A stretch of DNA of 64,000 bases, from contig CAVTGS010000012.1 of assembly GCA_963734295.1 (NCBI GenBank), positions 326,099 through 390,098 on the forward strand, given 5' to 3'. The first letter of the stretch is position 1. Every line of letters begins with the position of its first letter. The position numbers were made by a program, and so were the translations under genes. This stretch comes from an uncultured beta proteobacterium (GTDB lineage: Bacteria > Pseudomonadota > Gammaproteobacteria > Burkholderiales > JAEUMW01). The notes under the pieces are model-generated. The model searched no databases. It worked only from the letters and a program-made list of their open reading frames with translations, and was not told the origin of the DNA. Positions 21,275-53,601 of this stretch are shown piece by piece.

Positions 21275-22339
21275 ATGGACGTCCACCGCAGCCCCATCGG
21301 GGAGCGCATCGACTGGGTATTCGAGTTGGCACGGCGCCACGGCGAAGCGTTCCGCAGCCCCGAGTCCTGGCTCGCTCGCGAGCGGTATCTGGCCAAGCAC
21401 CCGACCGCCGTCGCCGTGCTGAAATGCATGGACGGACGGATCAACATCCCCGTCGCGACGCGCACGCCGCCCGGCATCCTGATGCCGTTTCGCAACCTGG
21501 GCGGCATGTTCGACCTGGGCTGGCCTCACCTGGGCGAGGTGCTGGCCCACCATGTCTCGCGGATGGTCGCGGAAGGACGCCAGGTGCTTTTCCTCATCAC
21601 CTATCATTTCTCGAAGGGCGATCGGCGACGCGGCTGCGCGGGGTTCAATCACGATACGGCGGCCGCGTACGCGCACGCGCGCCAGATCCAGGGCCAAGTG
21701 GAGCACATCTTCGGCGCCGACCACGGTACGGTCTATCCACTCGTGTGCGGGTTCGAAACCGACGAGGACGCGCTCATCCTGCACGGTACCGGTGCCATTA
21801 CGTTCAATCTGGCCGACGTCACGGACGCCGACCGGCCAACGCTGGCACCCCGGCTCGCGGCCTTCCTGCCCGACATGCCGAGTCGGATGCGGGACGATCT
21901 GCTGCCGCTCCTGCTCGGCAACCTCGACCACATCGCGGAGGTACGCGCCCAAGCCGCGCGCCACGAGCGCGAGCTGGACATCGAGCACCGGGAGTGGATG
22001 ATCTGCCTCGGCCGGGGCTTCGACTTCCTACACACGCCCAACATCGCCCTCATCGTCGGGCCCTACAGTCCCAACCTGGACGGACCTGTACGCAGGGCCG
22101 CCGCCATCATCCGCGACAACATGGCGGCCGGCCGGATTCCGGAGGACGGATTCCTGCTGCTCGCCTCCGTGCCCTACGACGATCTGGGTGTGGATCGCGC
22201 GCGCGCCGAGCTCAAGTCGCGGTTTCTGTCGCGCTTCGCGGCGGACGTGATCGGTGCGGAATTCCCGGACCTCGCGTCGCGGATGTTCCAGCGCACTGCC
22301 GTGCTGGACTGGCGTTCGCGGTCCCTCGAAGCAACCTAA
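21275..22339 (+). CDS. Hypothetical protein with beta-carbonic-anhydrase-like CxDxR motif
   Basis: 354-aa ORF with coding-like composition. Contains KCMDGRINIP and HFSKGDRRRGCAGF. I do not recognise a named family. Confidence 0.5.
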   Translation: MDVHRSPIGERIDWVFELARRHGEAFRSPESWLARERYLAKHPTAVAVLKCMDGRINIPVATRTPPGILMPFRNLGGMFDLGWPHLGEVLAHHVSRMVAEGRQVLFLITYHFSKGDRRRGCAGFNHDTAAAYAHARQIQGQVEHIFGADHGTVYPLVCGFETDEDALILHGTGAITFNLADVTDADRPTLAPRLAAFLPDMPSRMRDDLLPLLLGNLDHIAEVRAQAARHERELDIEHREWMICLGRGFDFLHTPNIALIVGPYSPNLDGPVRRAAAIIRDNMAAGRIPEDGFLLLASVPYDDLGVDRARAELKSRFLSRFAADVIGAEFPDLASRMFQRTAVLDWRSRSLEAT

Positions 22340-22853: not shown

Positions 22854-23174
22854 CTAACCGACCACCACCGCCGTGCCGCTGGCCGCCACCATCAGCATGC
22901 CGTTCTCGGCGCCCAGCACCTCGTAGGCCAGGTCGACACCGACCACCGCCGTCGCGCCGAGCTTGCCGGCGGCTTCGATCATCTCGTCGAGGGCGGTCTG
23001 GCGGGCGTCGGAAAGCGTGTGCTCGTAGGCGCCGGCGCGCCCGCCGACGATGTCGCGCACCCGCGCGAAGAGATCGCGAAAGACGTTTGCGCCGACGATC
23101 GCCTCGCCGGTTACGATGCCGAGATAGCGCGTGATGCGGTGACCTTCGATGCTGGGAGTGGTGGTGACGATCAT
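22854..23174 (-). CDS. YbjQ (UPF0145) family protein
   Basis: C-terminal 106 aa of ORF 22854..23831: [37 protein letters not shown]... Confidence 0.8.
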
Positions 23175-24010
23175 GGGGTCTCCTTGGTTCGACGAGTCGT
23201 CGGGGCGGGGCGAGCTTCGTTGAGAAACGTCGCGAGTGCGTCGCGATAGGTAGCGGCACTCACGAGAAAGGCGTCGTTGTGGCCGCCCTGCATCTCGACC
23301 AGACGTTTCGGGGGCCGCGCCGCTGCGAGCAGGCGCTCCGGATGGGACATCTCGAACAACTCGTCCTGGCGGCTGTGGAGAATGAGGAGCGGCGCGTCGA
23401 TCCGGTGTACCTGGTCGAGGCTGTCGAACCTGTGCTTCAGAATCCACTGCACGGGCAGAAACGGCAAACGCTTCTGCGCGATGTCCTTCACCGACGTGAA
23501 GCCGCTCTCCACGACCACACCGCCCACGGACACCTCCGCGGCGAGATGCACGGCCACCGCGGAGCCGAGCGACTCGCCGTACGCGACGATGCGCTCCGGC
23601 GCCACGCCACGCGTCGTGGTGAGCCAGTCGTAGGCGGCACGCGCGTCGCGATAAAAGCCCTGCTCGCTGGGCGTGCCGCTGCTCCGGCCGTAGCCGCGGT
23701 AGTCGATGATCAGCGTGTCGGCACCGATGTCGCGGAACACCGCGAGCTTCTCCAGCCGGTGTGAGACGTTGCCCCCATTGCCGTGAAGAAAAAGCACCGC
23801 CGGTGCATCGGGTCTGCCGGAGGGCACCCACCAGCCGTGCAGCTTCTCTCCGTCTGCGGTTGCGAGTGCAACGTTTTCGAACGTGAGCCCGGCATCGGCT
23901 GGTGTACGGACGATGTCGTGCGTCGGGAAGTACATCGACTGTTGCTCGTACCAGCGCAGACCGAGGAACAGTGCAAGCAGCAGCGCGCCGAGGGACAGGG
24001 CGGCAGTCAC
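23171..24010 (-). CDS. Alpha/beta hydrolase (membrane-anchored)
   Basis: ORF 23171..24274 with FLHGNGGN, nucleophile elbow GESLGS and C-terminal GGHND. The start is uncertain: GTG near 24010 or ATG at 24073. Confidence 0.7.
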
Positions 24011-24041
24011 GGTCGGGGCGTCCGGCGACAGCCTGCGGGTT

Positions 24042-25046
24042 TCAGATGGATCGCAGGAGCGCGACCAGGACATTCGGGTCGAGCGTCGGCGTGCCGGGTT
24101 CGTCCTTGAAGATGTACAGGCCCTTGGTGTAGATCGTTCGCGTCGGACTCGAACCCCACCCTTTCTTGATGTCCCACATGTACAAGCCAAACTTCCACGG
24201 ATGCAGGCCGGCGGTTTCGCGAAATGCGTTCGGAATGCCGGTGTCGACGATCTGCACCGGCGCACCATTGCCAACGGCCCGCCAGAGGCGGGTATAGGGG
24301 CCCTTCGCTTCGTCCCACTCGTACTTCCACTGAATCACGATGTAGTTCCAGGCTCCCTTCTGGACGGGAAAATCGAAGACGCTGCCGGTTCGCGTGGCGT
24401 CCGTGCCGTCGAGAACGGCATTGGCATTGACCCAGAAACGCAGCTTTCCATCCTTGCGCAGATCGAGCTTGTGCATCCCCTGGACGTTCCTGCTGCCGAC
24501 CGCGTGCCCGAGACCCATGATCGAAATGTGGTCCCCGCTGCCATCGAAGGGATGGTCGCTGCCGACGTAGAGCGCGAATGCAGCCCAATAGGGAACACCA
24601 TCGCGCAGTACGAACGGCGACGTCGCACTCCAGGCGGACATGATGGCCGCACGTGCAGATTGATAAGGTTTGCCGCCTCCGTACGTCCCCGAATCCTGCC
24701 GATAGGACATCCCTTCGAAAATCTTGTGGCGGAACGCCTTTCCCTCGGCGCGTGCAGGATCTGCGGTCCTCATCACCGTAAACTCCGAGGTGTTAGGGTC
24801 GCGATAGCCCGGCTCCGGAAAAGTGGTCAGGTCGCGCTCGATGTTCCTGCCTTCGCCATCCTGGCCCACCTGCAGCGAGATCCGATTCTTGGGATAAATG
24901 TCGAGCGGCTTGCCGGGGTCGATCCAGGCGACGGTGCGCGGATCGTTGGGCCCCGGGGCGGCAACGGCGGGGGGCGCGGCCGCCGCTCCGCCGTGCAAGC
25001 TCATCGCTGCCGCCAGGAGCAGGGTAGAGCACCAGTAGCGTGTCAT
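24042..25046 (-). CDS. Secreted protein, polysaccharide-lyase-like (concanavalin-like fold)
   Basis: ORF 24042..25064 with signal peptide MTRYWCSTLLLAAAMSLHG and WKFGLYMW / KGLYIF beta-sandwich-type motifs. Family assignment is tentative. Confidence 0.4.
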   Translation of the reverse strand: MTRYWCSTLLLAAAMSLHGGAAAAPPAVAAPGPNDPRTVAWIDPGKPLDIYPKNRISLQVGQDGEGRNIERDLTTFPEPGYRDPNTSEFTVMRTADPARAEGKAFRHKIFEGMSYRQDSGTYGGGKPYQSARAAIMSAWSATSPFVLRDGVPYWAAFALYVGSDHPFDGSGDHISIMGLGHAVGSRNVQGMHKLDLRKDGKLRFWVNANAVLDGTDATRTGSVFDFPVQKGAWNYIVIQWKYEWDEAKGPYTRLWRAVGNGAPVQIVDTGIPNAFRETAGLHPWKFGLYMWDIKKGWGSSPTRTIYTKGLYIFKDEPGTPTLDPNVLVALLRSI

Positions 25047-25060
25047 GTTGCGTTCCCCCG

Positions 25061-26224
25061 TCACTTTACGGGTCCGCGAGTCGGCTGCGTCCGCACCGCT
25101 CGGATGTCAGTGCCTCGATTCGCACGGGACGATTGCAGGTCGTCACCGTGCAGGCCCATGGCGGCGTACATCGCCTCCAGCTGGGGCACCACTGCGTTCG
25201 CGGAGAAGGCTGCTTCGACCTTGTGCCGCGCGGCGACTCCCATCCGTCTCGCAAGGTCCGGGTCGGCGAGCAGACGTTCGAGCCGGTCGGCCAGTGTCCG
25301 AACATCGCCCGGTTCGACGAGGAATCCTTCGACGCCATCGGTCACCGCCTCGGGAATCCCGCCTACGGGTGTGGTCAGGATAGGCAGTCCCGCGGCCATC
25401 GCCTCCAGCACGCTGACGGGGAGACCCTCGTTGTAGGAAGGCAGCACGTACAGCACTGCCGTGGCGAGCAGCCGCTCCTTGTCCTCGCCCCGCACCCAGC
25501 CCAGCAGCTCGACGCGGTCCGCGATACCGAGCTCTTCGGCGCGCACGCGCACCTCCGCGACCTCGCCATCGCCGCCCAGAAGCAGGCGCAGGTCCGGCCT
25601 CGTGGCAGCGACGCGTGCTGCCGCATTCAAGAGATCATAGCTGCCCTTGCCTGGACCCAATCGTCCCAGGAACAAGACCGATCCGGGGGTACGGTTCTCC
25701 CACGATGGAGTCTGGTCGGGCACCAGCACCGGGTTGTATATGGAAACCACGTTTGGGTTGCTGCACATCTGCAGCACCCACTTCTGCCATGCCGCCGACA
25801 GAACCAGCACCCGCTGACAACGGTTGTACACGAAACGCACGAATCGCTTGCGGAGCGGACCACATTCCTTGTCGTAGAAGACGGCGAATCCTCCTCCATG
25901 CAGGTGCAGAACGGCCGGAACGTCGAACAGAAAGGCCAGCAGGAAAAAGGTCGACTTCCTCCAGAAACTGGCACGGGAGGCAACGTGAACGTGAACGAGC
26001 GCGGGGCGGCGCAGCAGAGCCACCGCATACGAGCCCAGCGCGCTCATCGCACACCAGAGCTTTCTCAGCGCCGATCCATCGCAATGCGTGGCGATGTACC
26101 TGATCCCGAATCGCTCGAACAAACCGTATTGCTCATAAACTCGAACGACGGACGAAATCCCGCCGCGCGTATCGAGAGAGGTGCCCAGCATCAGAATTCG
26201 AGGTTGCAAAGCGGCTTCCTGCAC
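25061..26224 (-). CDS. Glycosyltransferase family 4
   Basis: 387-aa ORF with the GT-B signature EGLPVSVLEAMAAGLPILTTPVGGIPE. Confidence 0.85.
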   Translation of the reverse strand: MQEAALQPRILMLGTSLDTRGGISSVVRVYEQYGLFERFGIRYIATHCDGSALRKLWCAMSALGSYAVALLRRPALVHVHVASRASFWRKSTFFLLAFLFDVPAVLHLHGGGFAVFYDKECGPLRKRFVRFVYNRCQRVLVLSAAWQKWVLQMCSNPNVVSIYNPVLVPDQTPSWENRTPGSVLFLGRLGPGKGSYDLLNAAARVAATRPDLRLLLGGDGEVAEVRVRAEELGIADRVELLGWVRGEDKERLLATAVLYVLPSYNEGLPVSVLEAMAAGLPILTTPVGGIPEAVTDGVEGFLVEPGDVRTLADRLERLLADPDLARRMGVAARHKVEAAFSANAVVPQLEAMYAAMGLHGDDLQSSRANRGTDIRAVRTQPTRGPVK

Positions 26225-26242
26225 GTGGGTTAAGAGAACGCT

Positions 26243-27604
26243 TCAGACGTCGCAGACGACGGCGCGGAATTTGCCATTCCTGGTCCGAGGAATGTTTCCG
26301 ACGCTGCGAATGGCAATGGCGACGCCGTTGCCGATCCTCTCGCGAGCGTTGTTGATGATCAGACGTTCCACGTCGGCGCTGTAGCCGGTACCATCTACCA
26401 CGAGAATGTCGATGCGATCGAGCGCTTTCTGTCTGATCTGCGCTTCGATCACGCCGGATACGCCCTTGAAGATGTGATCGAGACGCCCGATGTGGCGTCC
26501 GTCGGGCAACTTGACGAGATCGTCCACGCGTCCCTGGATCGCACGCACGACCGGAAGGCTCCGACCACAGCGGCAGGACGCACCGGCTTCGGCGAGCTCG
26601 ACGAAGTCTCCCGTACGATAGCGGACAAGCGGCATGGCGAGGTTGTTGAAACCCGTGCCGACGATTTCATGAGTGCCGTCGCCGACCGGAATGAACTCGC
26701 AAAACGAGTAATCCGACATGACGTGATAGGTACCGTGCTCGCAGGTTCCGATCGCGGCGACGCGCTCGAACTGCCCGTACCAGTCGAAGACCCTGCACCC
26801 GAACCGCCGCTCGATCACCGCGCGCTGCGCGCCGGAGAGCGACTCGGAGGACGTGACGATTCCTTGCAGTTGCGCGCCACCGTACGACCGATCGGCAGCC
26901 TCCAGCCAGCTCGCGAGAAAGCCGATCGAAGAAGGGTAAGCCTGAATGACGAGCGGATCGAATCTGGCAAGGGCTTCGAGGTAGGCCGGCGCGTTCCCCT
27001 CCGACAGATGATACGAGGAGAGCATCAGCATGTTTTCGGTACGACTCATGCGCCAGTACGGTGGCTCCGGCTGCGATACCGGCGCCACCATGTCACCGCG
27101 AATCCATGCCCGCCGGCCCATCGGCGTCAGCCCTGCCCAGCTCAGTTGCCGCTGGATGAAGGCGTTCTCACGATTGATTGCGCGCAGGTCCTGAAACACC
27201 TTCAGAGGTGAACCGGTCGTGCCGCTGGTAGCACCCTCGAATACAGGCCGGCTGGCCGCCGAGAGCAAGGCGCGCCCCGCCGCACGCACCTCGCTCTTGT
27301 CGAGCAGCGGGATCCGCGCGAGATCGGACTCGTGCTGGATATCGCCAGGAGTGACGCCGGCCTCGCCGAAGCGCTTTCGGTAGAAGGCACAATGCGTGTG
27401 AGCGTGCTCCAGCACGCGCGACAGCATGGCCATGCGGTAGTGGTCGATGGCCGCGCGGTCGTACCATTGCGATGCATCGACCTCGGCCCGCAGGCGGCCG
27501 AAGCTGCGGCCCTCGCGCAGACGCGCACGCGACCAGGCGCGCAGAGAGATCAAGGCCTCCTGCGCCCAGATCGGGCTACGGCGGTAGAGGGGCGACGAGA
27601 ACAT
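26243..27604 (-). CDS. Adenylate-forming enzyme, PaaK/CapK/F390-synthetase-like (copy 1)
   Basis: 453-aa ORF with FEGATSGTTGSPLKV and a C-terminal NGKFRAV-type motif. Confidence 0.75.
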   Translation of the reverse strand: MFSSPLYRRSPIWAQEALISLRAWSRARLREGRSFGRLRAEVDASQWYDRAAIDHYRMAMLSRVLEHAHTHCAFYRKRFGEAGVTPGDIQHESDLARIPLLDKSEVRAAGRALLSAASRPVFEGATSGTTGSPLKVFQDLRAINRENAFIQRQLSWAGLTPMGRRAWIRGDMVAPVSQPEPPYWRMSRTENMLMLSSYHLSEGNAPAYLEALARFDPLVIQAYPSSIGFLASWLEAADRSYGGAQLQGIVTSSESLSGAQRAVIERRFGCRVFDWYGQFERVAAIGTCEHGTYHVMSDYSFCEFIPVGDGTHEIVGTGFNNLAMPLVRYRTGDFVELAEAGASCRCGRSLPVVRAIQGRVDDLVKLPDGRHIGRLDHIFKGVSGVIEAQIRQKALDRIDILVVDGTGYSADVERLIINNARERIGNGVAIAIRSVGNIPRTRNGKFRAVVCDV

Positions 27605-27753
27605 CGGTTTTCTTCACGCACGAACGATCAGCAGATGACTGCGACGCGCGCTGCTGCGCGAACGCGGGGAAAGCTCTGCGAACCAAACGAGACCCGACAG
27701 TTTCGCACGCTACAGCCCACGGCGCCCCGACGCGGCGATCGGCGGGGCAGACT

Positions 27754-29091
27754 TCAACCCGAAACTGCCGCGAACCGCCGGATTACGAACGGAGTCTTGC
27801 CCGACGGCAGCCGCTCCATCTCGTCGACGACCTCGACCGTGAGCCGCATGTCCGCCGGCACCCACACATAGGCATTACGAAGCAACTGGGCTTCGTCGAT
27901 GCGGCCGACCCGCGGATCGACCAGGACGCGAAGGGTCGCGCGGTCTGCGGCATCTTGCAACACCTGCATGCGCACGAGGCCCTTGATCCCGGCCGCGGCA
28001 TGGGTGAGGCCGACGATTACTTCGCCGCGCGGCGAGATAAGGTGCTCCTTGTCGCGGCCCTCGATCGACATGACCGGCTTGAGCCCCAGACACACGTCGT
28101 CCAGATCCTCGTGGGTGTAGCTCTCGGGCACGATCGCACGGTCGCCCGAGCGGTAGCGCGCGAGCGGCATCGCTTCGTTCCAATACCCGGTAGCGACGAT
28201 CTCGAACGCGCGATGCCCTGCGGGCGCTTCGCCGCTGGCGATCGGGAGGAGCTCGACGCGCCCGTAGGCCGGATTGAAGAAGTAAGCCCCAGCGGCCACG
28301 CCGGCGGCAAGAACGACGCGCTCGGCCATCCCGTAGTAGTCGATCACCGTGGCGTTGAAAACGCTCTCCATGAGCAGCCGGCCCGCCGGGTGCAGCATCT
28401 CGGACGATGTCAGCACGACCGGAATCTCGAGCGAGAGGCCGCGCTGCTGCAGCAGTCGGGCCAGCGCCTCGCCCGAGCTCGGATGGGTGAAGAGGACATC
28501 CGGACGCAGGTCGCGCAGGGCCTCGAAGTACCAGTCGACGGTGAGTGCGCTCAGATGATTGGACGACAGCAGGAGACGGCGCCCACCGTCGCGGTATTGG
28601 CCGAAGGGGGGCTCGCGATCGCTCTGTGGCTTGACGTTGTCGGCGCGCAGGCGCGCCATGCGCGCGCTCCTGAAGCTGTAGTTCCACACACCCAGCAAGT
28701 CGTCGATGAACGCCTGTTCGACGGCCACGTTGGCGAGCGACCGCACCAGCTTGACCGGTATGCCGGTCGTGCCACTCGTCGCCGCCGGGATGCGTATCAG
28801 CGCCGGCGTGCAAAAGAGCTCCGGATGCGCGCGCACGTCGTCCTTTTCGATAATTGGCCGTTCCGCGAGCGGAACTCCCCTCGGGAGACCGTCCGGCAGC
28901 CTTGCCGCCCATTGCAGGGTACGCGCCGTGAGCCGTTCCGCGAGCGCCCGACGGGCGGCCCGATCCATCGTATCGAGCTCCCGCAGCAGCTTGCGCACCG
29001 GCTCATAGTACTGGTGGCGGTAGCGCAGCCGGTCGTCGATGACCGCCGATCTCTTGAAGGCGTCGGTCAGCCGGTCGATCAGTCTCGGCAT
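27754..29091 (-). CDS. Adenylate-forming enzyme, PaaK/CapK/F390-synthetase-like (copy 2)
   Basis: 445-aa ORF with AATSGTTGIPVKLV and the same architecture as copy 1, but strongly diverged. Confidence 0.75.
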   Translation of the reverse strand: MPRLIDRLTDAFKRSAVIDDRLRYRHQYYEPVRKLLRELDTMDRAARRALAERLTARTLQWAARLPDGLPRGVPLAERPIIEKDDVRAHPELFCTPALIRIPAATSGTTGIPVKLVRSLANVAVEQAFIDDLLGVWNYSFRSARMARLRADNVKPQSDREPPFGQYRDGGRRLLLSSNHLSALTVDWYFEALRDLRPDVLFTHPSSGEALARLLQQRGLSLEIPVVLTSSEMLHPAGRLLMESVFNATVIDYYGMAERVVLAAGVAAGAYFFNPAYGRVELLPIASGEAPAGHRAFEIVATGYWNEAMPLARYRSGDRAIVPESYTHEDLDDVCLGLKPVMSIEGRDKEHLISPRGEVIVGLTHAAAGIKGLVRMQVLQDAADRATLRVLVDPRVGRIDEAQLLRNAYVWVPADMRLTVEVVDEMERLPSGKTPFVIRRFAAVSG

Positions 29092-29148
29092 GCGGGTTCC
29101 GGGGAGACTGCGGCGTGGGACACCGGCATGGAGCGAGAGGGTGTCGAC

Positions 29149-29748
29149 TTAGCCGACGATCGCAAAGTCGATCGGCTTGAAGCGCCCATTGTTCGAGCCC
29201 TCGGCCGAACACGCGGTGAGGCCGCATACCATGTCCATCTCCGCCAGGAGATCGACGTGATCGCCAGCGCGGGACGCGGGAACCCCGACCGTGAGTCTGC
29301 CTTGGGTATCGATGACGACGTTCATGAAGATGTTGAACGTCGTCGCGATCTGCTCGGGCCCGATGCCGAACCGGGCCAGGCTAGTGCAGAGGTTCTCGAA
29401 GCAGCTCGGATGGTGGCCACGGTGCTGGTAGAGGATCTCGAACATCTCCTGACTGCAGGGCGTGAGCAGGAAGTCGTGGCGCCCGACCGTGTCGTCCAGG
29501 ATCGTGAACATCCTGCGGCTGTCGTTCGCGTAAAGGACGTCACCGGTGGTCAGGTAGATCTTCCCCGCGTAGTCGAGCGAGCGCCCCGACGACAGCCAGC
29601 AGGCGGGGTCGTGATCGGCAAACGCGAAAAGATCGGCCACCTGCTCGCCCTGCGGATCGACGACGCGCAGCATCTGCCCCTTGCGAATACTAAATGCGGT
29701 GCCCGACTGTGGAGCGATGCGGGTGAGCGGCGGAGACGAATCCATCAT
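29149..29748 (-). CDS. DUF1989 (urea-carboxylase-associated / CgdAB-like) family protein
   Basis: C-terminal 199 aa of ORF 29149..30519, from MMDSSPPLTRIAPQSGTAFSIRKGQMLRVVDPQGEQVADLFAF. An ATGA overlap joins it to the upstream gene. Confidence 0.7.
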   Translation of the reverse strand: MMDSSPPLTRIAPQSGTAFSIRKGQMLRVVDPQGEQVADLFAFADHDPACWLSSGRSLDYAGKIYLTTGDVLYANDSRRMFTILDDTVGRHDFLLTPCSQEMFEILYQHRGHHPSCFENLCTSLARFGIGPEQIATTFNIFMNVVIDTQGRLTVGVPASRAGDHVDLLAEMDMVCGLTACSAEGSNNGRFKPIDFAIVG

Positions 29749-30581
29749 TTTTCTTCTGTATGCATGTTGTGGAACGGGCATGTCCAGTCGTCCGGTACGT
29801 TGCGCCCCGAGTACTGGCGGGCCTCCGAGCTCTGCCCGAAGTCCTTGAGCACCGGATTGATGGACCCCTGATAGGCCATGTCTCGCGCGCGAATGATGCG
29901 CTTCATCGTTTCGAACTTGCCGCGCGCACGGAGGTGGTCGAACTGCTCGTGGAGATTGAACACCAGGGTCGGCTGCCCGACCGTGCGCGCCATGCGCGAG
30001 GCGCGCGGATGCAGGCCCACGACGAAGAATCCGCGCCCGCCGATGCTGAACGAGAACTCCGGATGGGCCGGATCCGAGCTGATCCGCTGATCCCAGGAAA
30101 AGTGCATGCCGTCGAGCTCGTGCATGCCTTGCAGGTGCCGCCAGAGCAGTTCCTCGAAGTGCAACTCCGTCTCGACGGCCGGGCTTCGGAACATGGCGAT
30201 GAAGCTCACGAACTGGTCGCCGATGTCCCGAAATTCGTGGCTGAATTCGTAGAGATCGTAACAGACCCCGCTCACCGCGGCGCGGGAGGCGAGCTCGGTA
30301 TAGAGGCTGAAGCGATAGGTTCTGCGATTGAGTGCCGACTTGGCGCCCACGCACGGAAATCCCTCGCCCATTACCCGGGCTCTCAGGTCCTCGTGCGCCG
30401 CAGCCAGGTCGGCATCGGCGGCCCGCCCTGGGATCAGCGGGTGAACGACCGCGTTGCCGACGAAAGCGGCGTAGCCCGAAGCTTGGCGCGCCGCCGGGTC
30501 GTTCGCCAGCGGATTCCACGGCCGCGCGGGGGCGCCGGCGCCCGTCTCTGCTTCCAATCTGTCCGCTGCGGCGATGTCCAT
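29745..30581 (-). CDS. YqcI/YcgG family protein (GntA-like putative heme-dependent N-oxygenase family)
   Basis: 278-aa ORF with FPCVGAKSALNR..YRF, FVSFIAMF and GGRGFFVVGLHP. Confidence 0.7.
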   Translation of the reverse strand: MDIAAADRLEAETGAGAPARPWNPLANDPAARQASGYAAFVGNAVVHPLIPGRAADADLAAAHEDLRARVMGEGFPCVGAKSALNRRTYRFSLYTELASRAAVSGVCYDLYEFSHEFRDIGDQFVSFIAMFRSPAVETELHFEELLWRHLQGMHELDGMHFSWDQRISSDPAHPEFSFSIGGRGFFVVGLHPRASRMARTVGQPTLVFNLHEQFDHLRARGKFETMKRIIRARDMAYQGSINPVLKDFGQSSEARQYSGRNVPDDWTCPFHNMHTEEK

Positions 30582-30786
30582 GGGGGTTGCATTCTACTCA
30601 GCCGGTCGGAGCGCGCGCAGGACGTCGACGCATGGCGGGCGTCCGGAGGTGTCCGGCTCGCTTGGCGTGCCTCCCGGCGGGGGCGCATTATTCTCATAAC
30701 GCTACCGGCTTGCGACAGTCCGGTCGGAACGGGGGTCGTGGTGACTCCCGGAGGCGTCGTCTCGCTTCCCGGCAAACCGCCAGTCC

Positions 30787-32296
30787 TTACCCAGCCGCAC
30801 TCATCGCCCGCTCCCGCAGCACCCGCTTCAGCACCTTGCCCGTGGCGCTCTTCGGCAGTGCGTCGACGATGTTGACCCGATGCGGGACCTTGTACGGCGC
30901 GACATGCTCGCGGCAAAAGGCGACGATCTCTTCGGGCGTCACCTGAGCGTCCGCCTTCGGGACCACGTCCGCGAACACCTGCTCCCCGCGCACGCGATGG
31001 GCTGCACCGTACACCGCGGCTTCCTGCACGTCGAGGTGACGGTACAGCACCTGCTCGACTTCCGCCGGCCACACCTTCAGGCCCGCGACGTTGATCATGT
31101 CCTTCACGCGGTCGACGATGAAAAGATAGCCGTCCGCATCGAGCCGTCCGATGTCGCCGGTATGCAGCCAGCCGCCGCGCAGTGCCAGCGCGCTTTCCTC
31201 GGGCCGGTTCCAGTAGCCCTGCATCACGCCGGGACCGCGGAAACAGATCTCGCCCCATTCGCCGGTCGGCACCTCGCGGTCGCTCGTATCCAGGATGCGC
31301 ACGCGCACCCCCGGAACGCACCTGCCTACGCTGCCGATGCGGTGCTGATCGGGCACGTTGACGTTGGTGAGCGGTGAGGTTTCGGTGAGCCCGTAACCCT
31401 GGTAGATCGGGCGACCGGTGCGCGCCTGCCAGCGATGCACGAGCTCATCGGGCAGCGGCGCCGCACCCGCGACTTCGTATCGCAGCGAGGTGAGGTCGTA
31501 GTCCTCCAGCTGCATCGCGAGCAGCGTCGCATAGATCGTGGCGACGGCAAAGAGGAGGGTGGCGCGCTCCTCCTGAATGGCGCGAAGAATCACGCGTGGC
31601 TCGACCCGCCGGAACGAGAAGGAGCGTCGCGCCCGCCTCGAAGGCGGCGTTCATCATCACGTTCTGCGCGAACACGTGAAAGAGCGGCAGAAACGTCACG
31701 ACCTTGTCCTCGCGGACGAATTTCATCGTCTGTACCGTGATGCGCATGTTGGAGACGACATTGCCGACGGTGAGCGTCGCGCCCTTGGGTCGCCCGGTGG
31801 TGCCGGAAGTGTAGAGGATGGCTGCCGGGTCGCTCGCCTTCCGGGGCTCCATCGGACCCGACACCGAGGTACCCGCCATCCAGTCGCCGAGTGGCACCGC
31901 GCCATCGGCTTCCCCCTCGCACGCGACGACGTGCGCCAGGGCCGGGCAGCGGTCCCGCGGCACGTTCCGCACGAGATCGCCCACGGTGAAGACGGCGCGC
32001 GCGCCCGAATCGTCGAGGATGTACTGGACCTCCTCGGTCGTCAGCGTCGGATTCATGGATACCGCGATGCCGCCCACGCGCTGCACCGCGAGGTAGACGA
32101 GAGGAAACGCCGGAATGTTCGGCAGATAAAGCACGACCCGGTCGCCCGGGGCAATGCCCGCGTCCGCCAGCGATCGGGCGAGACGGGCTGCGTGCGCGTC
32201 GAGAGTGGCGTAGTCGATCGACGTGCCTTCGAAAACGATCGCGGCGTGGCGCGGATCGACGCGCGCCACCCGGGCCACGTGGCGGGCGATGTTCAT
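30787..32296 (-). pseudogene. AMP-dependent acyl-CoA synthetase/ligase, one frameshift near 31600-31612
   Basis: ORF 31445..32296 carries the N-half (YTSGTTGRPKG ... FEAGATLLLVP). ORF 30787..31593 carries the C-half ((V)ILRAIQEERATLLFAV ... GYGLTETS ... GDIG ... PKSATGKVLK). They join only by a 1-nt shift. Confidence 0.8.
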
Positions 32297-32307
32297 GCCC
32301 GACCGCG

Positions 32308-32626
32308 TCAGGTGATGCGCTTCTTCAGGTCGGCTGCATAATCCTCATATCGGCGCAGCGGTGTGACGTCGATGTGGACGTGCTGCCCGTGGGCCTGCAT
32401 GATCGGCAGATCCATCAGGATCTGGTCGAGGGTGTCGGGGCCGTCCACGTCCACGATCGCGATCACACGTCGACTGCCGACGCATTTCCACAGATCCACC
32501 ACGGCGCCCGCCTTTTTGGCGCCCAGGGCAGCATCGGCCTCCTGCGCCCAAAGGGTAAAGAGCTCCTTCTGTGGACATGGTGGCGGGGTACTCGACGTTG
32601 AAAAGCAGGTGATAGAGCATGGTCAT
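32308..32626 (-). pseudogene. Muconolactone delta-isomerase-like (dimeric alpha+beta barrel) gene, frameshift near 32565
   Basis: MTMLYHLLFNVEYPATMSTEG (frame of ORF 32345..32626) continues as ELFTLWAQEADAALGAKKAGAVVDLWKCVG...DVTPLRRYEDY in the frame of ORF 32308..32502. Confidence 0.65.
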
Positions 32627-32734
32627 CCTCCTCGTTATGGGTGGGCGGTCGAACCCGGTGGGGATTATGAACCCATGCGAATCCCGGTGGCACGACCTGC
32701 GGTAACCCAGACTGGTCGTATGGTCCCGCCGGGC

Positions 32735-33130
32735 TCAGGTGCGGTAGGCAGCCCCGGTCTTCTCGGCGATCGCGCGGGCCTGCGCGACGAAGCCGACGAA
32801 CATGTCGGTGAGGAGCTTCGTGACCTCGGGCCCCGCCTTCGACGGTGTCCCGGCGTCGAGCGGCGGCGCAGGGTCGTACTCGGCGAGAAGCTGCACCGCC
32901 TTCGCGTACTCGACCCCGCGCAGCCTTTCGATCAGCGACAGGCCGAAGTCCAGCCCTGCGGTCACGCCCGCGCCCGTGATGCGGTTGCGGTCCGTGACGA
33001 CACGCGCACGGCTCGGCGTTGCGCCGAAGAGCGGAAGGATGTCGGAGGGTGACCCAGTGGGAGGTGGCCTCATAACCGCGGAGCAGGCCTGCCGCGCCGA
33101 GGACGAGCGACCCGGTACACCGCGCCGTGC
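32735..33130 (-). pseudogene. DJ-1/PfpI family gene, 5'-truncated and frameshifted near 33040
   Basis: CTGSLVLGAAGLLRGYEATSHW (own translation of 33050-33118) shifts frame into ..DILPLFGATPSRARVVTDRNRITGAGVTAGLDF.. (ORF 32735..33073). No N-terminal third precedes it; the hsdR stop lies at 33186. Confidence 0.65.
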
Positions 33131-33185
33131 CGCGTGTGAGCGCCGTTCGCGAGGACGGTTCCGATCGCCCTGGCCGATAAGCCTC

Positions 33186-36330
<3,145 letters not shown>

Positions 36331-50715: not shown

Positions 50716-50936
50716 CCAGATCGCTGCCTTTCATACGGGATCAGAATCGCTCCATATGATAGTCAGCGTTTAACAAGAACGGAAGGCAGCCGCCTTGTTT
50801 TACTTTGCGGAGTCCCCTGGGGCCGCTTCGAGATCACGTTCCGGGGCGGGTCTGCGGCGGTGTTCTCGTAGTCGAGGCTCCCGGCGCAGGGCGGATCAGC
50901 CAGCACCAGCGTGTATCCGTCCTTGCAGGAAGGGCG

Positions 50937-51992
50937 CTAGATCGCCTCCGCGAGCGCCCGGCCCAGCTCCTGGGTGCTGGCCTTGCCGCCCAGGTCGGGC
51001 GTGTGAGGGCCGTTCGCGAGGACGGTTTCGATCGCTCCCATCACCGCTGCGGCGGCCTCGGGATGCCCGAGGTGTTCCAGCATCATCGCGCCCGACCAGA
51101 CCTGTCCGATGGGATTCGCGATATTGCGGCCGAAGATGTCTGGCGCGGAGCCGTGCACTGGCTCGAAGAGCGAGGGATACTCGCGCTCCGGATTGAGATT
51201 GGCCGACGGTGCGATCGCGATGGTGCCGGTGGTTCCGGGGCCGAGGTCCGAGAGGATGTCGCCGAAAAGATTGGATCCCACCACCACGTCGAACCAGTCG
51301 GGGTGCTGGACGAAGTGGGCGGAGAGGATGTCGATGTGGTACTGGTCGGTGCGCACGTCGGGGAAGTCTTGCGCCATCGCTGCGAAGCGCTCGTCCCAGA
51401 ACGGCATGGTGATGGCGATGCCGTTCGATTTGGTCGCGGAGGTGAGGTGCTTCTTCGGGCGCGAGCGGGCAAGCTCGAAGGCGTAGCGCAGGATGCGGTC
51501 GACGCCTTTTCGGGTGAAGGTGCTCTGCTGCACGACGACCTCGTCCTCGGTGCCTTCGTACATGCGACCGCCGACCGAGGAGTACTCGCCCTCGTTGTTC
51601 TCGCGCACCACCACGTAGTCGATGTCGCCGGGCGCGCGGTTCGCGAGCGGCGAGCGCAGGCCGGGGAAGAGGCGCACCGGACGCAGGCTCACGTACTGGC
51701 GGAAGCCGCGGCGCATCGGGATCAGCAGGCCCCACAGCGACACATGATCGGGCACGCCCGGGAAGCCGACGGCGCCGAAGTAGATCGCCTCGAAGGGGCG
51801 AAGCTGATCGAGCCCGTCCTCGGGCATCAGGCGGCCGGTCTTCGTGTAGTACTCGCAGCCCCAGGGGAACTCCACCCAGTCGCAACGGAAGCCGAATTTC
51901 CGGCCTGCGGCCTCCATCGCCCGGATGCCCTCGGGCATCACTTCGTTGCCGATTCCGTCTCCGGGAATCACCGCGATCCTGTGCGTCGTCAT
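50937..51992 (-). CDS. Tartrate dehydrogenase/decarboxylase (isocitrate/isopropylmalate dehydrogenase family)
   Basis: C-terminal 351 aa of ORF 50937..52244, from MTTHRIAVIPGDGIGNEV, with NLFGDILSDLG. Confidence 0.85.
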   Translation of the reverse strand: MTTHRIAVIPGDGIGNEVMPEGIRAMEAAGRKFGFRCDWVEFPWGCEYYTKTGRLMPEDGLDQLRPFEAIYFGAVGFPGVPDHVSLWGLLIPMRRGFRQYVSLRPVRLFPGLRSPLANRAPGDIDYVVVRENNEGEYSSVGGRMYEGTEDEVVVQQSTFTRKGVDRILRYAFELARSRPKKHLTSATKSNGIAITMPFWDERFAAMAQDFPDVRTDQYHIDILSAHFVQHPDWFDVVVGSNLFGDILSDLGPGTTGTIAIAPSANLNPEREYPSLFEPVHGSAPDIFGRNIANPIGQVWSGAMMLEHLGHPEAAAAVMGAIETVLANGPHTPDLGGKASTQELGRALAEAI

Positions 51993-52079
51993 GGTCGTGT
52001 CCTCCGCGCCGCGCAGCTGCGATGGTAACCGATCGCGTCGTCGAAGAACGCCTGCGTGCGTCGATGCGATAATGCGGCC

Positions 52080-53081
52080 ATGTCGGCCACGCTCCGTTCC
52101 GCCCACCGCCTGTGCACCGCTCCGATGATGGACTGGTCGGACCGGCATTGCCGGTACTTCTTCCGCCAGCTCGCTCCCCACGCGCGCCTCTACACGGAGA
52201 TGGTCACCACGGGCGCGCTCCTGCACGGCAATGCGGAACGCCACCTGCGGTTCGATGGCGCGGAGTCACCCGTGGCACTGCAGCTCGGGGGCAGCGAGCC
52301 GGCCGACCTCGCGCGCTGTGCCGAGCTCGGCGAGCGCTGGGGCTACGACGAGATCAACTTGAACTGCGGCTGCCCGTCGGAGCGGGTACTGAAAGGAGCG
52401 TTCGGCGCCTGCCTGATGCACGAGCCGGAACTGGTGGCGGATTGCGTGCGGGCGATGCGGGAGGTGGTGTCGCTGCCGGTGACGGTCAAGCACCGGCTCG
52501 GCGTCGACGACAGCGAGTCTTTCGACTTCGTGCGGCGGTTCGTCGAGACGGTCGCACGCGCGGGCTGCACGACCTTCATCGTGCATGCGCGCAATGCGAT
52601 CCTGAAGGGTCTGTCGCCGAAGGACAATCGCGCCGTGCCGCCGCTCAAGTACGACTACGTGTATCGACTGAAGGCGTCGTTCCCGGAGCTTTCGATCGTG
52701 CTGAACGGCGGCGTGGCGACACGGGCGGATATCGAGGCACACTTGCTCCGGGTGGACGGCGTCATGCTGGGGCGCGCGGCTTACCACGACGCCTATTTGC
52801 TCGCGGCGACGGATGCACGCCTCTACCGGGGCGTGGCGCCGACCCGCGCGGAGGTGGTGCGGGCGATGGCGGACTACGCTCGGCGCGAAACGCAGGAAGG
52901 CACGCCGCTTCGCGCGATCGTCCGGCACCTGCTCGGTCTGTATCAGGGCGAGCCGCGGGCCCGCGCCTGGCGCCGCTGCCTTTCGGATGCCTCGCGACTC
53001 GCCGAGAACCGGCCCGAGCTCCTGCTCGAAGCGCTCGCGCTGGTCGAGGGTGACGGGCGTGCCTGGTCAGAAGCCGCCTGA
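52080..53081 (+). CDS. dusA: tRNA-dihydrouridine(20/20a) synthase DusA
   Basis: ORF 52056..53081 with start at MSATLRSAHRLCTAPMMDWSDRHCRYF and INLNCGCPS. Confidence 0.9.
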   Translation: MSATLRSAHRLCTAPMMDWSDRHCRYFFRQLAPHARLYTEMVTTGALLHGNAERHLRFDGAESPVALQLGGSEPADLARCAELGERWGYDEINLNCGCPSERVLKGAFGACLMHEPELVADCVRAMREVVSLPVTVKHRLGVDDSESFDFVRRFVETVARAGCTTFIVHARNAILKGLSPKDNRAVPPLKYDYVYRLKASFPELSIVLNGGVATRADIEAHLLRVDGVMLGRAAYHDAYLLAATDARLYRGVAPTRAEVVRAMADYARRETQEGTPLRAIVRHLLGLYQGEPRARAWRRCLSDASRLAENRPELLLEALALVEGDGRAWSEAA

Positions 53082-53088
53082 CCGACCA

Positions 53089-53601
53089 TCAGGTGCGGCG
53101 GCGCAGCCGCTTGGCGTTGCTCGTCGCCTTCGCGTGCACGGGGCTCACGGCACCGTGGGCGATGCGCGGCAGCGTAGACAGGGCCCGATTGCCGGCCGCC
53201 ACCATCCCGTTCACGACCTTGGCAGGATTCGCGACGGCACGCGCCGAGCGGGCTGCCAACAGCGGATTGCATGCGCGCATGAGCAGCCACCATTGCTGCG
53301 AAGCGTTGCTCCCGATCTGCTGCTGGAATGCGACCGCCTCGCGGGCCGCATTGATCCAGGCTTGTGAAAAGGCGATCAACTTCTCCGTGCCCATGTTCGT
53401 GAATTCGCGCCGATCCGCCGCGCCGGGAAACGGTCCGGCGGCGACCATACGCGCGGTGCGCTGCGCGACGACCTGCGGTGCCGCGAGCATGGTTTCCCAG
53501 GTCTTCATGCCGACCTGCCACCACACCATGGTCGGGTAGGCGCGGACCAGCGCTCGGCTGTAACGCTGCAGATCGTCGCTGTTCCAGGGCAGAAATTGCA
53601 T
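53089..53601 (-). CDS. Hypothetical protein
   Basis: C-terminal 170 aa of ORF 53089..53733, from MQFLPWNSDDLQRY. Helical and Ala-rich; no family recognised. Confidence 0.4.
   Translation of the reverse strand: MQFLPWNSDDLQRYSRALVRAYPTMVWWQVGMKTWETMLAAPQVVAQRTARMVAAGPFPGAADRREFTNMGTEKLIAFSQAWINAAREAVAFQQQIGSNASQQWWLLMRACNPLLAARSARAVANPAKVVNGMVAAGNRALSTLPRIAHGAVSPVHAKATSNAKRLRRRT

Follow-up and report, generated by a model that had tools for sequence, protein, structure and literature searches.

The subject of this report is a co-directional run of ten genes at positions 22854–32626, on the minus strand, of a 64,000-nucleotide stretch of contig CAVTGS010000012.1 (the window; GC ∼66%), which derives from a metagenome-assembled genome (MAG) of an uncultured beta proteobacterium (Burkholderiales) that is 83% complete in 36 contigs. 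A preliminary description had listed these ten genes in this order as a cluster of unknown product, and all ten were confirmed, with their family assignments upheld. Our best-supported conclusion is that the sole deeply conserved unit of the run is a cassette whose core encodes a YqcI/YcgG-type heme enzyme and a DUF1989 zinc enzyme, joined facultatively by a CapK-type ligase, CapK2. New here are this third partner of the pair and a swap of the cassette among related genomes. The run as a whole is very probably a patchwork of four or more modules that have separate histories rather than a single biosynthetic cluster. Its features, in the order of transcription, are as follows.

32309–32626, minus strand: muconolactone-isomerase-like (MIase-like) gene, module 1, with a 1-nt insertion near 32575.
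30787–32296, minus strand: FadD-type (PRK06187-like) acyl-CoA synthetase (ACS), module 1, with a 1-nt insertion (G) near 31615.
30582–30786, minus strand: spacer of 205 nt between ACS and YqcI, the left cassette border, 5′ of YqcI.
29745–30581, minus strand: YqcI/YcgG thiolate-heme N-hydroxylase by family (YqcI), module 2, PF08892 at 6.5e-58.
29149–29748, minus strand: DUF1989 zinc enzyme by family, module 2, PF09347 at 1e-56.
27754–29091, minus strand: CapK2, a CapK/PaaK-type adenylate-forming ligase, module 2.
27605–27753, minus strand: spacer of 149 nt between CapK2 and CapK1, the right cassette border.
26243–27604, minus strand: CapK1, a second, diverged CapK/PaaK-type ligase, module 3.
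25061–26224, minus strand: family 4 glycosyltransferase (GT4), module 3, PF00534 at 3.7e-39 and PF13692.
24042–25046, minus strand: secreted beta-jelly-roll polysaccharide-lyase-like protein (PL), module 3, PF14099.
23171–24010 (or 24073), minus strand: membrane-anchored alpha/beta hydrolase (ABH), module 4, PF00561 and PF12146.
22854–23174, minus strand: YbjQ (UPF0145), module 4, PF01906 at 6.8e-38.

The two large gaps noted previously thus measure 149 and 205 nt. Of three start/stop overlaps proposed at the same time, those at YqcI/DUF1989 and ABH/YbjQ are present, each of 4 nt, and the third, at GT4/PL, exists only if the GTG start at 25064 is used.

The division into modules rests on the genus to which the window belongs, since its members hold the four modules present or absent independently of one another. 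Five genomes besides that of the window make up the genus set, and DNA and protein comparisons were made with four of them (G002, G003, G004, and G005). ABH and YbjQ are kept in all four regardless of the other modules, with YbjQ 78 to 96% identical. The CapK1–GT4–PL module lies upstream of ABH–YbjQ in G003, G004, and G005 and is absent from that place in G002, which keeps only ABH–YbjQ and has Hcp-like and other genes where the module would be. The YqcI–DUF1989–CapK2 cassette was found in this comparison only in the window genome and in G004, the one genome among the five others of the genus with a YqcI gene. The MIase-like gene and ACS, in turn, adjoin DNA in G003 that matches window positions 50932–53590.

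The borders of the cassette, which spans 3.2 kb, are seen most directly in G003. This genome aligns to window positions 22854–27577 and 30809–32632, and the interval 27578–30808 is replaced by 1.9 kb carrying a secreted HbpS-like gene on the opposite strand (L131:4992–6014). The same HbpS-like gene stands upstream of CapK1 in G005 (L130:4627–5481), followed beyond by a major facilitator superfamily (MFS) transporter and no MIase–ACS pair. In both genomes homology restarts at 27577–27604, the start of CapK1, and CapK1 itself is 75% identical in each of these two genomes that lack the cassette. The cassette is an occupant of a variable slot between an older MIase–ACS pair and an older CapK1–GT4–PL module. 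No notable direct or inverted repeats and no insertion sequence remnants were found at its borders. A promoter and terminator consensus scan of the window gave a count no higher than in shuffled sequence and called no promoter in the 205-nt spacer 5′ of YqcI. Over its final ∼80 nt, ahead of YqcI, this spacer is conserved with L007, and TAGAAT lies in that stretch. As a side observation, the HbpS/GlcG-like (heme-degrading-protein-like) gene fills the slot of a heme-enzyme cassette, so that both occupants are heme-related, which may be a coincidence.

These comparisons bear directly on the possibility that all ten genes form one cluster whose product would be one glycoconjugate or small molecule, acylated or amidated. 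The genes all run in one direction, separated by short gaps or joined by the overlaps described above, eight of them (YqcI through YbjQ) are syntenic on contigs L006 and L011 (the latter belonging to G004), and an ACS gene lies 5′ of YqcI in L007 and L008. However, the syntenic contigs belong to the same genus (84 to 87% identity), and this synteny, inherited within the genus at 74 to 96% identity, says little about function; the genus members carry subsets of the genes in all combinations. Outside the genus no homologue of the MIase-like protein, FadD-type ACS, PL, ABH, or YbjQ was found beside the YqcI–DUF1989 pair. The 205-nt gap separates ACS from YqcI, and only the MIase-like gene and ACS are frameshifted. 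We consider a single ten-gene cluster very improbable. Likewise, the three adenylate-forming enzymes that had been grouped as a set do not form one, as the FadD-type ACS sits in a different module. Chance juxtaposition, which had been named as the outcome of neighborhood analysis that would refute the cluster, does not account for the whole run: YqcI and DUF1989, with CapK2 in a minority of loci, are co-conserved elsewhere. A neat co-directional run with overlapping stop codons may still be a patchwork, which calls for caution in reading such runs.

The two most upstream genes had been described as frameshifted, and comparison with intact relatives traces this to a single inserted base in each. 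In the window, the PF00501 and PF13193 domains of ACS are split across two frames. L007 and G003 have the gene uninterrupted in one frame, and for the intact orthologue of G003 the NF004837 score is 473 bits, slightly below the cut-off of 476. The MIase-like protein begins with the N-terminus MLYHLLFNVEYP and carries on in a second frame in otherwise pristine sequence. Its identity in the window follows from the intact homologue of G003 (103 aa, L131:2781–3092), which is recognizable by a PF02426 match of 3e-20. Both frames are otherwise undamaged, and the other eight genes are intact. The insertions may be true mutations, as in recent local decay, or may reflect poor local assembly. We also observed that damage clusters at window positions 30787–36300, where the two shifts are accompanied by a truncated DJ-1-like fragment (32735–33073), and that the 7.7 kb from YbjQ to YqcI hold zero frameshifts.

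A wider scan, started from an alignment of YqcI sequences and limited to one genome per species, yielded 80 loci, onto which the ten window proteins were mapped by tblastn. DUF1989 adjoins YqcI in 67 of the 80. The pair occurs in nine phyla (Nitrospirota, Pseudomonadota, Acidobacteriota, Bacteroidota, Planctomycetota, Chloroflexota, Actinomycetota, Armatimonadota, and Vulcanimicrobiota), and its carriers include the nitrifiers Nitrospira, Nitrosomonas, and Nitrosospira as well as the PET degrader Piscinibacter (Ideonella) sakaiensis. The two genes share a 4-nt stop/start overlap in 35 of 66 loci and in most others lie no more than 15 nt apart, and DUF1989 is the better conserved (70 to 76% identity) compared with YqcI (55 to 62%). 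In most genomes the pair is a free-standing two-gene operon, and when the flanking open reading frames were clustered all against all, the CapK2 type emerged as the sole additional recurrent family. YqcI loci that lack DUF1989 are mostly from Streptomyces and Lentzea, at ∼45% identity, beside nonribosomal peptide synthetase (NRPS) or ACS genes, and fall into separate clades on the YqcI tree. In the literature searched, no paper brings YqcI and DUF1989 together, assigns the pair a function, or describes the chemistry of the three-gene cassette. YqcI/YcgG and DUF1989 are both widespread, each with few known reactions, and they are among the most consistently linked pairs that we observed.

The first enzyme of the pair is assigned with confidence to its family. 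The PF08892 match covers profile positions 2–211 of 211, and an AlphaFold2 (AF2) model with a mean predicted local distance difference test (pLDDT) score of 85.6 returned five Foldseek matches at E ≤ 0.001, all of them AglA entries (template modeling (TM) scores of 0.65/0.74, root mean square deviation of 2.9 Å). A phmmer search of YqcI against PDB sequences gave no match, and AglA was reached only via profile and fold searches. In the profile alignment, C77 corresponds to the AglA heme ligand Cys44 and R199 to the propionate-binding Arg166, and both residues are invariant in 35 sequences. Among the substrate-gating positions of AglA, Phe182 is matched by Phe214 and Phe152 by a Phe of a GGRGFF motif. 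Because the six characterized YqcI/YcgG enzymes all act on arginine derivatives by N-hydroxylation of the guanidino group (PMC12866846), the window enzyme is predicted by analogy to N-hydroxylate a guanidino group.

A more specific label is available for this protein, which scores 272 bits against NF041366, the equivalog model for GntA of guanitoxin biosynthesis (cut-off 145). However, none of the other nine genes matches a guanitoxin model. A guanitoxin cluster or another known YqcI natural-product cluster was rejected for the window, as the partner genes are absent and the actinomycete NRPS-linked homologues belong to other clades. The same model also names homologues (P0025, P0044, P0075, P0080, and P0110) in Nitrospira, Janthinobacterium, and other genomes that lack a guanitoxin cluster, where DUF1989 is their only partner, and the GntA name is probably a systematic over-annotation. 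In practice, the NCBI model labels enzymes as belonging to guanitoxin biosynthesis in genomes without that pathway.

The second enzyme matches structure 3ORU and the DUF1989 domain of the trimethylamine N-oxide (TMAO) demethylase Tdm. Its residues C98, H113, C116, and C180 align with Tdm C263, H276, C279, and C343, of which the three cysteines are the zinc ligands in Tdm (PMC12560246). Identity with Tdm itself was rejected, as the protein has 199 aa and scores 92.8 bits against NF053776, for which the cut-off is 1100. The other known activity of the family is that of CgdAB, which according to Schneider et al. 2020 is reportedly a carboxyguanidine deiminase. Scores against the CgdA and CgdB equivalogs TIGR03424 and TIGR03425 are 119.7 (cut-off 284.7) and 93.7 (cut-off 205.95), and the genome holds a single DUF1989 gene with no second subunit. 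An identity as CgdAB was rejected on these scores, on the single subunit, and on the lack of CgdAB-type neighbors.

The family membership of CgdAB nevertheless makes it conceivable that YqcI and DUF1989 break down or detoxify free guanidino compounds in two steps, with CapK2 as an unrelated neighbor. Such a route would serve as a nitrogen source or feed the release of hydroxylamine, urea, or ammonia, which is consistent with the abundance of the pair in nitrifiers and with its mostly free-standing operons. Several results argue otherwise. Genes for a guanidine carboxylase, an allophanate hydrolase, a transporter, or a urease do not adjoin the pair, neither the window nor the 66 pair loci show a guanidine/urea carboxylase or an allophanate hydrolase as a neighbor, and the low CgdA/CgdB scores point the same way. 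A search of Rfam for a guanidine riboswitch or any other element upstream of YqcI had no match, either in the window (E ≤ 1) or in seven other loci (gathering score). A survey of Nitrospirales did not count orphan CgdB hits toward guanidine degradation, treating them as probable false positives (PMC12342949). Moreover, a CapK-like gene adjoins YqcI far more often than an unrelated neighbor would. We regard the free-guanidine route as improbable.

The frequency of that adjacency is the main evidence for a third partner. A CapK-like gene adjoins YqcI in eight of the 80 YqcI-seeded loci, which are those of the window’s genus, Nitrosomonas, Janthinobacterium fluminis, a gammaproteobacterial MAG, an actinobacterial MAG, and three Cytophagales. 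The window genome holds five CapK-like genes in 4.5 Mb, from which chance adjacency can be roughly estimated at <1%, compared with the ∼10% observed. Because this is far above chance, the link of CapK2 to the pair is real but facultative. CapK2 orthologues follow YqcI or YqcI–DUF1989 in Nitrosomonas, Janthinobacterium, the actinobacterial MAG, and metagenomes, and in L047 and L097 YqcI and CapK2 are joined directly without DUF1989. A converse test, seeded with CapK2 and consisting of a metagenome scan and five look-ups, gave 10 informative contexts of the CapK2 family at ≥55% identity, in four of which YqcI lies immediately upstream (L095, L097, L098, and L133).

In the YqcI phylogeny, Nitrosomonas and Janthinobacterium, both with the trio, form successive basal branches of the 36-row clade that contains the window, within which the Nitrospira sequences with only the pair are nested. 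This branching pattern fits an ancestral trio from which the ligase was later lost. In the actinobacterial MAG, YqcI and CapK2 lie among thiolase, P450, and FAD-oxidoreductase genes. As an observation in its own right, the Nitrosomonas sp. MAG_42 genome (CP091135.1; L015/L091, 4668–20134) carries the trio on an integrated island together with two family 2 glycosyltransferase (GT2) genes, an epimerase gene, and an ABC/HlyD/OEP exporter, and the neighbors of this island are a tmRNA, a phage-type integrase, a ParDE pair, and a replication-initiator gene. Taken together, YqcI, DUF1989, and CapK2 probably constitute a functional unit.

The ligase itself has the hallmarks of an adenylate-forming enzyme. 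The ANL motifs TSGTTGIPVK, YGMAE, RYRSGDR, and SGKTPF are invariant in five orthologues, the C-terminal catalytic Lys is kept, and PF27533 (CapK_C) is precomputed on proteins 91 to 98% identical to CapK2. CapK1 is 32% identical to CapK2 and was assigned to its family from PaaK-like NCBIfam and PDB matches only; its scores of 110 bits for the DVU_1553 family and 88 bits for PaaK models fall far short of the cut-offs. An identity as the phenylacetate-CoA ligase PaaK was rejected for both proteins, with 21 bits for CapK2 and 84.5 bits for CapK1 against TIGR02155 (cut-off 646). Three further CapK-like ligases are encoded elsewhere in the genome (C11:176482–177855, C4:11461–12882, and C18:125618–126988), mostly among housekeeping-looking genes.

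A possible acceptor for the ligase is suggested by the wider CapK family, which is firmly tied to uronic-acid glycans. CapK1 relatives at 33 to 41% identity adjoin UDP-sugar dehydrogenase and GT4 genes. More broadly, CapK relatives at 25 to 41% identity stand in tandem beside GT4, heparinase-like, Wzz, and initiating-transferase genes in L102, L105, and L107 and directly upstream of UDP-sugar dehydrogenase in L108–L112, and the order of a CapK-like gene followed by GT4 recurs in metagenome loci L101–L113. We noted in addition that L102, L105, and L107 hold three CapK-like genes (one divergent, two tandem), two GT4 genes, and a heparinase II/III-like gene, with no N-hydroxylase; they look like polysaccharide loci with several amidoligases. 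The PaaK/CapK-like protein VpsH (PF27533) is required for the addition of glycine to L-GulNAcA on the lipid-linked intermediate of Vibrio polysaccharide (VPS) (PMC13463779). This assignment, which dates from 2026, is the sole genetic one for a CapK-like enzyme in the literature searched. It lends precedent to one part of the proposal that the locus directs an acylated or amidated glycoconjugate pathway, namely CapK-type amidation; the part that does not hold is that all ten genes act as one unit.

Beside the CapK-type genes of the window, the only genes of this kind are GT4 and PL. PL matches PF14099 with 36.1 bits (cut-off 29.9) and has a signal-peptide-like N-terminus, MTRYWCSTLLLAAAMSLHGGAAAAP. 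Its AF2 model (pLDDT 88) gives as top Foldseek matches the PL20 glucuronan lyase 2ZZJ, PL13 heparinase I, and PL14 and PL7 alginate lyases (entries 2ZZJ, 3IMN, 5GMT, and 2CWS), with E values from 6e-11 to 1e-7 and modest TM scores of 0.41 to 0.64. The family is narrow, with 33 clusters in a large protein database. A second lyase-like copy, 73% identical, is present in the genome (G000:C12:816522–817418). Among the pair or trio loci, five lie among polysaccharide genes. L009 combines GT4s with a sulfotransferase, a second CapK1-like gene, and a heparinase-like one; L010 has an initiating transferase and a UDP-sugar dehydrogenase together with Wzz; L091 is the Nitrosomonas island described above; L093 encodes AsnB in addition to GT4s and a heparinase-like protein; and L133 carries Wzy and a further PaaK-like ligase. 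An AMP-binding gene upstream in L133 was tried as a homologue of the window ACS and rejected, as it is PaaK-like and has no significant BLASTP similarity. A proposed comparison with exosortase/PEP-CTERM-associated exopolysaccharide (EPS) loci did not bear out, because the markers fall below cut-off: ABH scores 16 of 203 bits against TIGR03101, GT4 118 of 409 against TIGR03088, and the G003 ACS 282 of 592 against TIGR03098.

Because the CapK1–GT4–PL module adjoins the cassette, a uronic-acid glycan is the most plausible acceptor at this locus, and a concrete sequence of steps can be proposed. YqcI, supplied with O2 and with electrons from a generic ferredoxin system, would place a hydroxyl group on a guanidino nitrogen in a substrate of arginine type. 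The translationally coupled DUF1989 enzyme would then convert the N-hydroxyguanidine at its Cys3/His metal site, either by deimination or hydrolysis to a hydroxyurea-type group or with release of a hydroxylamine-type nucleophile. Finally, CapK2 would adenylate a carboxylate with ATP and couple it, as an amide or hydroxamate, to or through the DUF1989 product. The acceptor would be a uronic acid of the glycan handled by CapK1 (as a second amidoligase), GT4, and the secreted polyuronide lyase. This chain of hydroxylation, conversion, and ligation, the simplest that connects the three enzymes, is drawn from the family chemistries, which are N-hydroxylation for YqcI, deimination or N-oxide rearrangement for DUF1989, and carboxylate adenylation for CapK/PaaK enzymes. 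We give even chances to the best overall explanation, in which a mosaic locus carries a hydroxylate-convert-ligate cassette. That the glycan is the target of this cassette is a tentative proposal, to which we assign clearly less than an even chance.

Several observations weigh against parts of this explanation. The mechanism would be carried over by analogy from relatives of YqcI, DUF1989, and CapK2, and the gating Arg179 of AglA is replaced in YqcI by His211; substrate specificity therefore differs from that of AglA, and an arginine-type substrate is a guess at the level of the family only. As to CapK2, no YqcI gene is nearby in six of the 10 CapK2-seeded contexts (L099, L100, and L134–L137), and a dedicated YqcI-linked subfamily could not be defined by identity, with linked and unlinked members overlapping at 55 to 63%. 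As to the glycan, the 149-nt gap and the cassette swap indicate that CapK2 and CapK1 are not co-inherited, and no flippase, polymerase, initiating transferase, uronic-acid synthesis, or export gene is found near the run in the window. A general link between the pair and polysaccharide genes was tested with a 23-seed phmmer panel and rejected, as a match within 8 kb occurs in only ∼6 of the 66 pair loci, and ∼58 of the 66 lack any polysaccharide gene over that distance. The Janthinobacterium trio is isolated, with map on one side and rpsB on the other. Three of the six unlinked CapK2-family genes, on contigs that are unrelated to one another, are directly followed by a gene of the nucleoside phosphorylase family PNP_UDP_1 (L100:2216–4377, L135:6001–8304, and L137:6001–8111). 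This is a further recurring association of the ligase family, and CapK2 may therefore act on a soluble substrate.

These points lead to another account of the trio, in which it makes or processes a soluble small molecule, such as an amide or hydroxamate derived from N-hydroxy-arginine, a signal, an antimetabolite, or a chelator, and the CapK1–GT4–PL neighborhood is incidental. The housekeeping surroundings in Janthinobacterium, the thiolase and P450 genes in the actinobacterial MAG, and the absence of polysaccharide genes from most pair loci all favor it, as does the exporter that follows the trio in Nitrosomonas. So does the fact that all characterized YqcI/YcgG enzymes use soluble arginine derivatives in natural-product pathways (PMC12866846). 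Conversely, the pair or trio recurs in polysaccharide loci with extra CapK-like ligases (L009, L093, L133, and the window), the substrate of VpsH is a lipid-linked sugar, and the exporter in Nitrosomonas is accompanied by two GT2 genes after the trio. We judge a soluble product unlikely, but it deserves serious consideration.

Returning to the glycan as target, its most far-reaching version is that the cassette installs an N-oxygenated, guanidine-derived group (a hydroxamate, or an N-hydroxyguanidine or hydroxyurea amide) on a glycan uronic acid, and that the pair, more broadly, could be an O2-dependent route from the guanidino to the hydroxylamine or NO level without nitric-oxide synthase. 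This version is speculative and, in our estimation, improbable. If true, it would yield a metal-binding or redox-active polysaccharide. The CapK partner and the VpsH precedent together provide a concrete, testable hypothesis of three steps, for genes that are present in several cultured strains.

The flanks of the run in the window comprise a P-type ATPase, a binding protein, a MOSC-domain gene, and a CsoSCA-like gene. The last of these (21275–22339, plus strand) is divergent from the MOSC-domain gene and encodes a 354-aa protein with a weak but above-cut-off match (22.6 versus 21.5 bits) to PF20686, the catalytic domain of carboxysome shell carbonic anhydrase; no carboxysome genes lie near it.

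Comparison with known systems sets out what is shared and what is different at this locus. Some EPS operons encode their own lyase or hydrolase, such as AlgL (alginate), PslG, and BcsZ. Like these, the CapK1–GT4–PL module combines genes for synthesis or tailoring and one for a secreted protein, here of polyuronide-lyase fold; unlike them, it has one glycosyltransferase only and no polymerase, flippase, or export genes. VpsH, from the Vibrio cholerae VPS locus, shares the adenylate-forming fold family with CapK1 and CapK2, a likeness at family level only. It has no N-hydroxylase partner, and genes of the CapK2 family also occur far from polysaccharide genes.

With AglA, DcsA, GntA, ChmN, AmbT, and Mhr24, the window YqcI shares the Pfam family, the AglA sandwich fold, the heme Cys, and the Arg. 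It is ∼21% identical to AglA, from which it differs by an extra N-terminal segment of ∼60 residues with a conserved WNPL motif. In contrast to the characterized YqcI/YcgG enzymes, it lies outside any NRPS, phosphonate, or guanitoxin cluster and is coupled to DUF1989, a partner that none of them has. A parallel to the logic of the two steps proposed here for YqcI and DUF1989 is found in D-cycloserine biosynthesis, where DcsA, a YqcI-family N-hydroxylase (PMC12866846), forms N-hydroxyarginine. DcsB then cleaves the hydroxyguanidine by hydrolysis to hydroxyurea. However, DcsB is of the arginase family, the second enzyme here is DUF1989, and no other dcs genes are present. Finally, CgdAB and Tdm have PF09347 and the Cys3(+His) metal site in common with the window DUF1989 enzyme, and both known activities use small nitrogen-rich or N-oxide substrates. 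In Tdm, DUF1989 is fused to a GcvT-type domain in a protein of ∼760 aa, a domain that the window protein lacks. CgdA and CgdB form a pair with a biotin carboxylase partner, whereas the window encodes a single 199-aa protein whose partner is a heme oxygenase.

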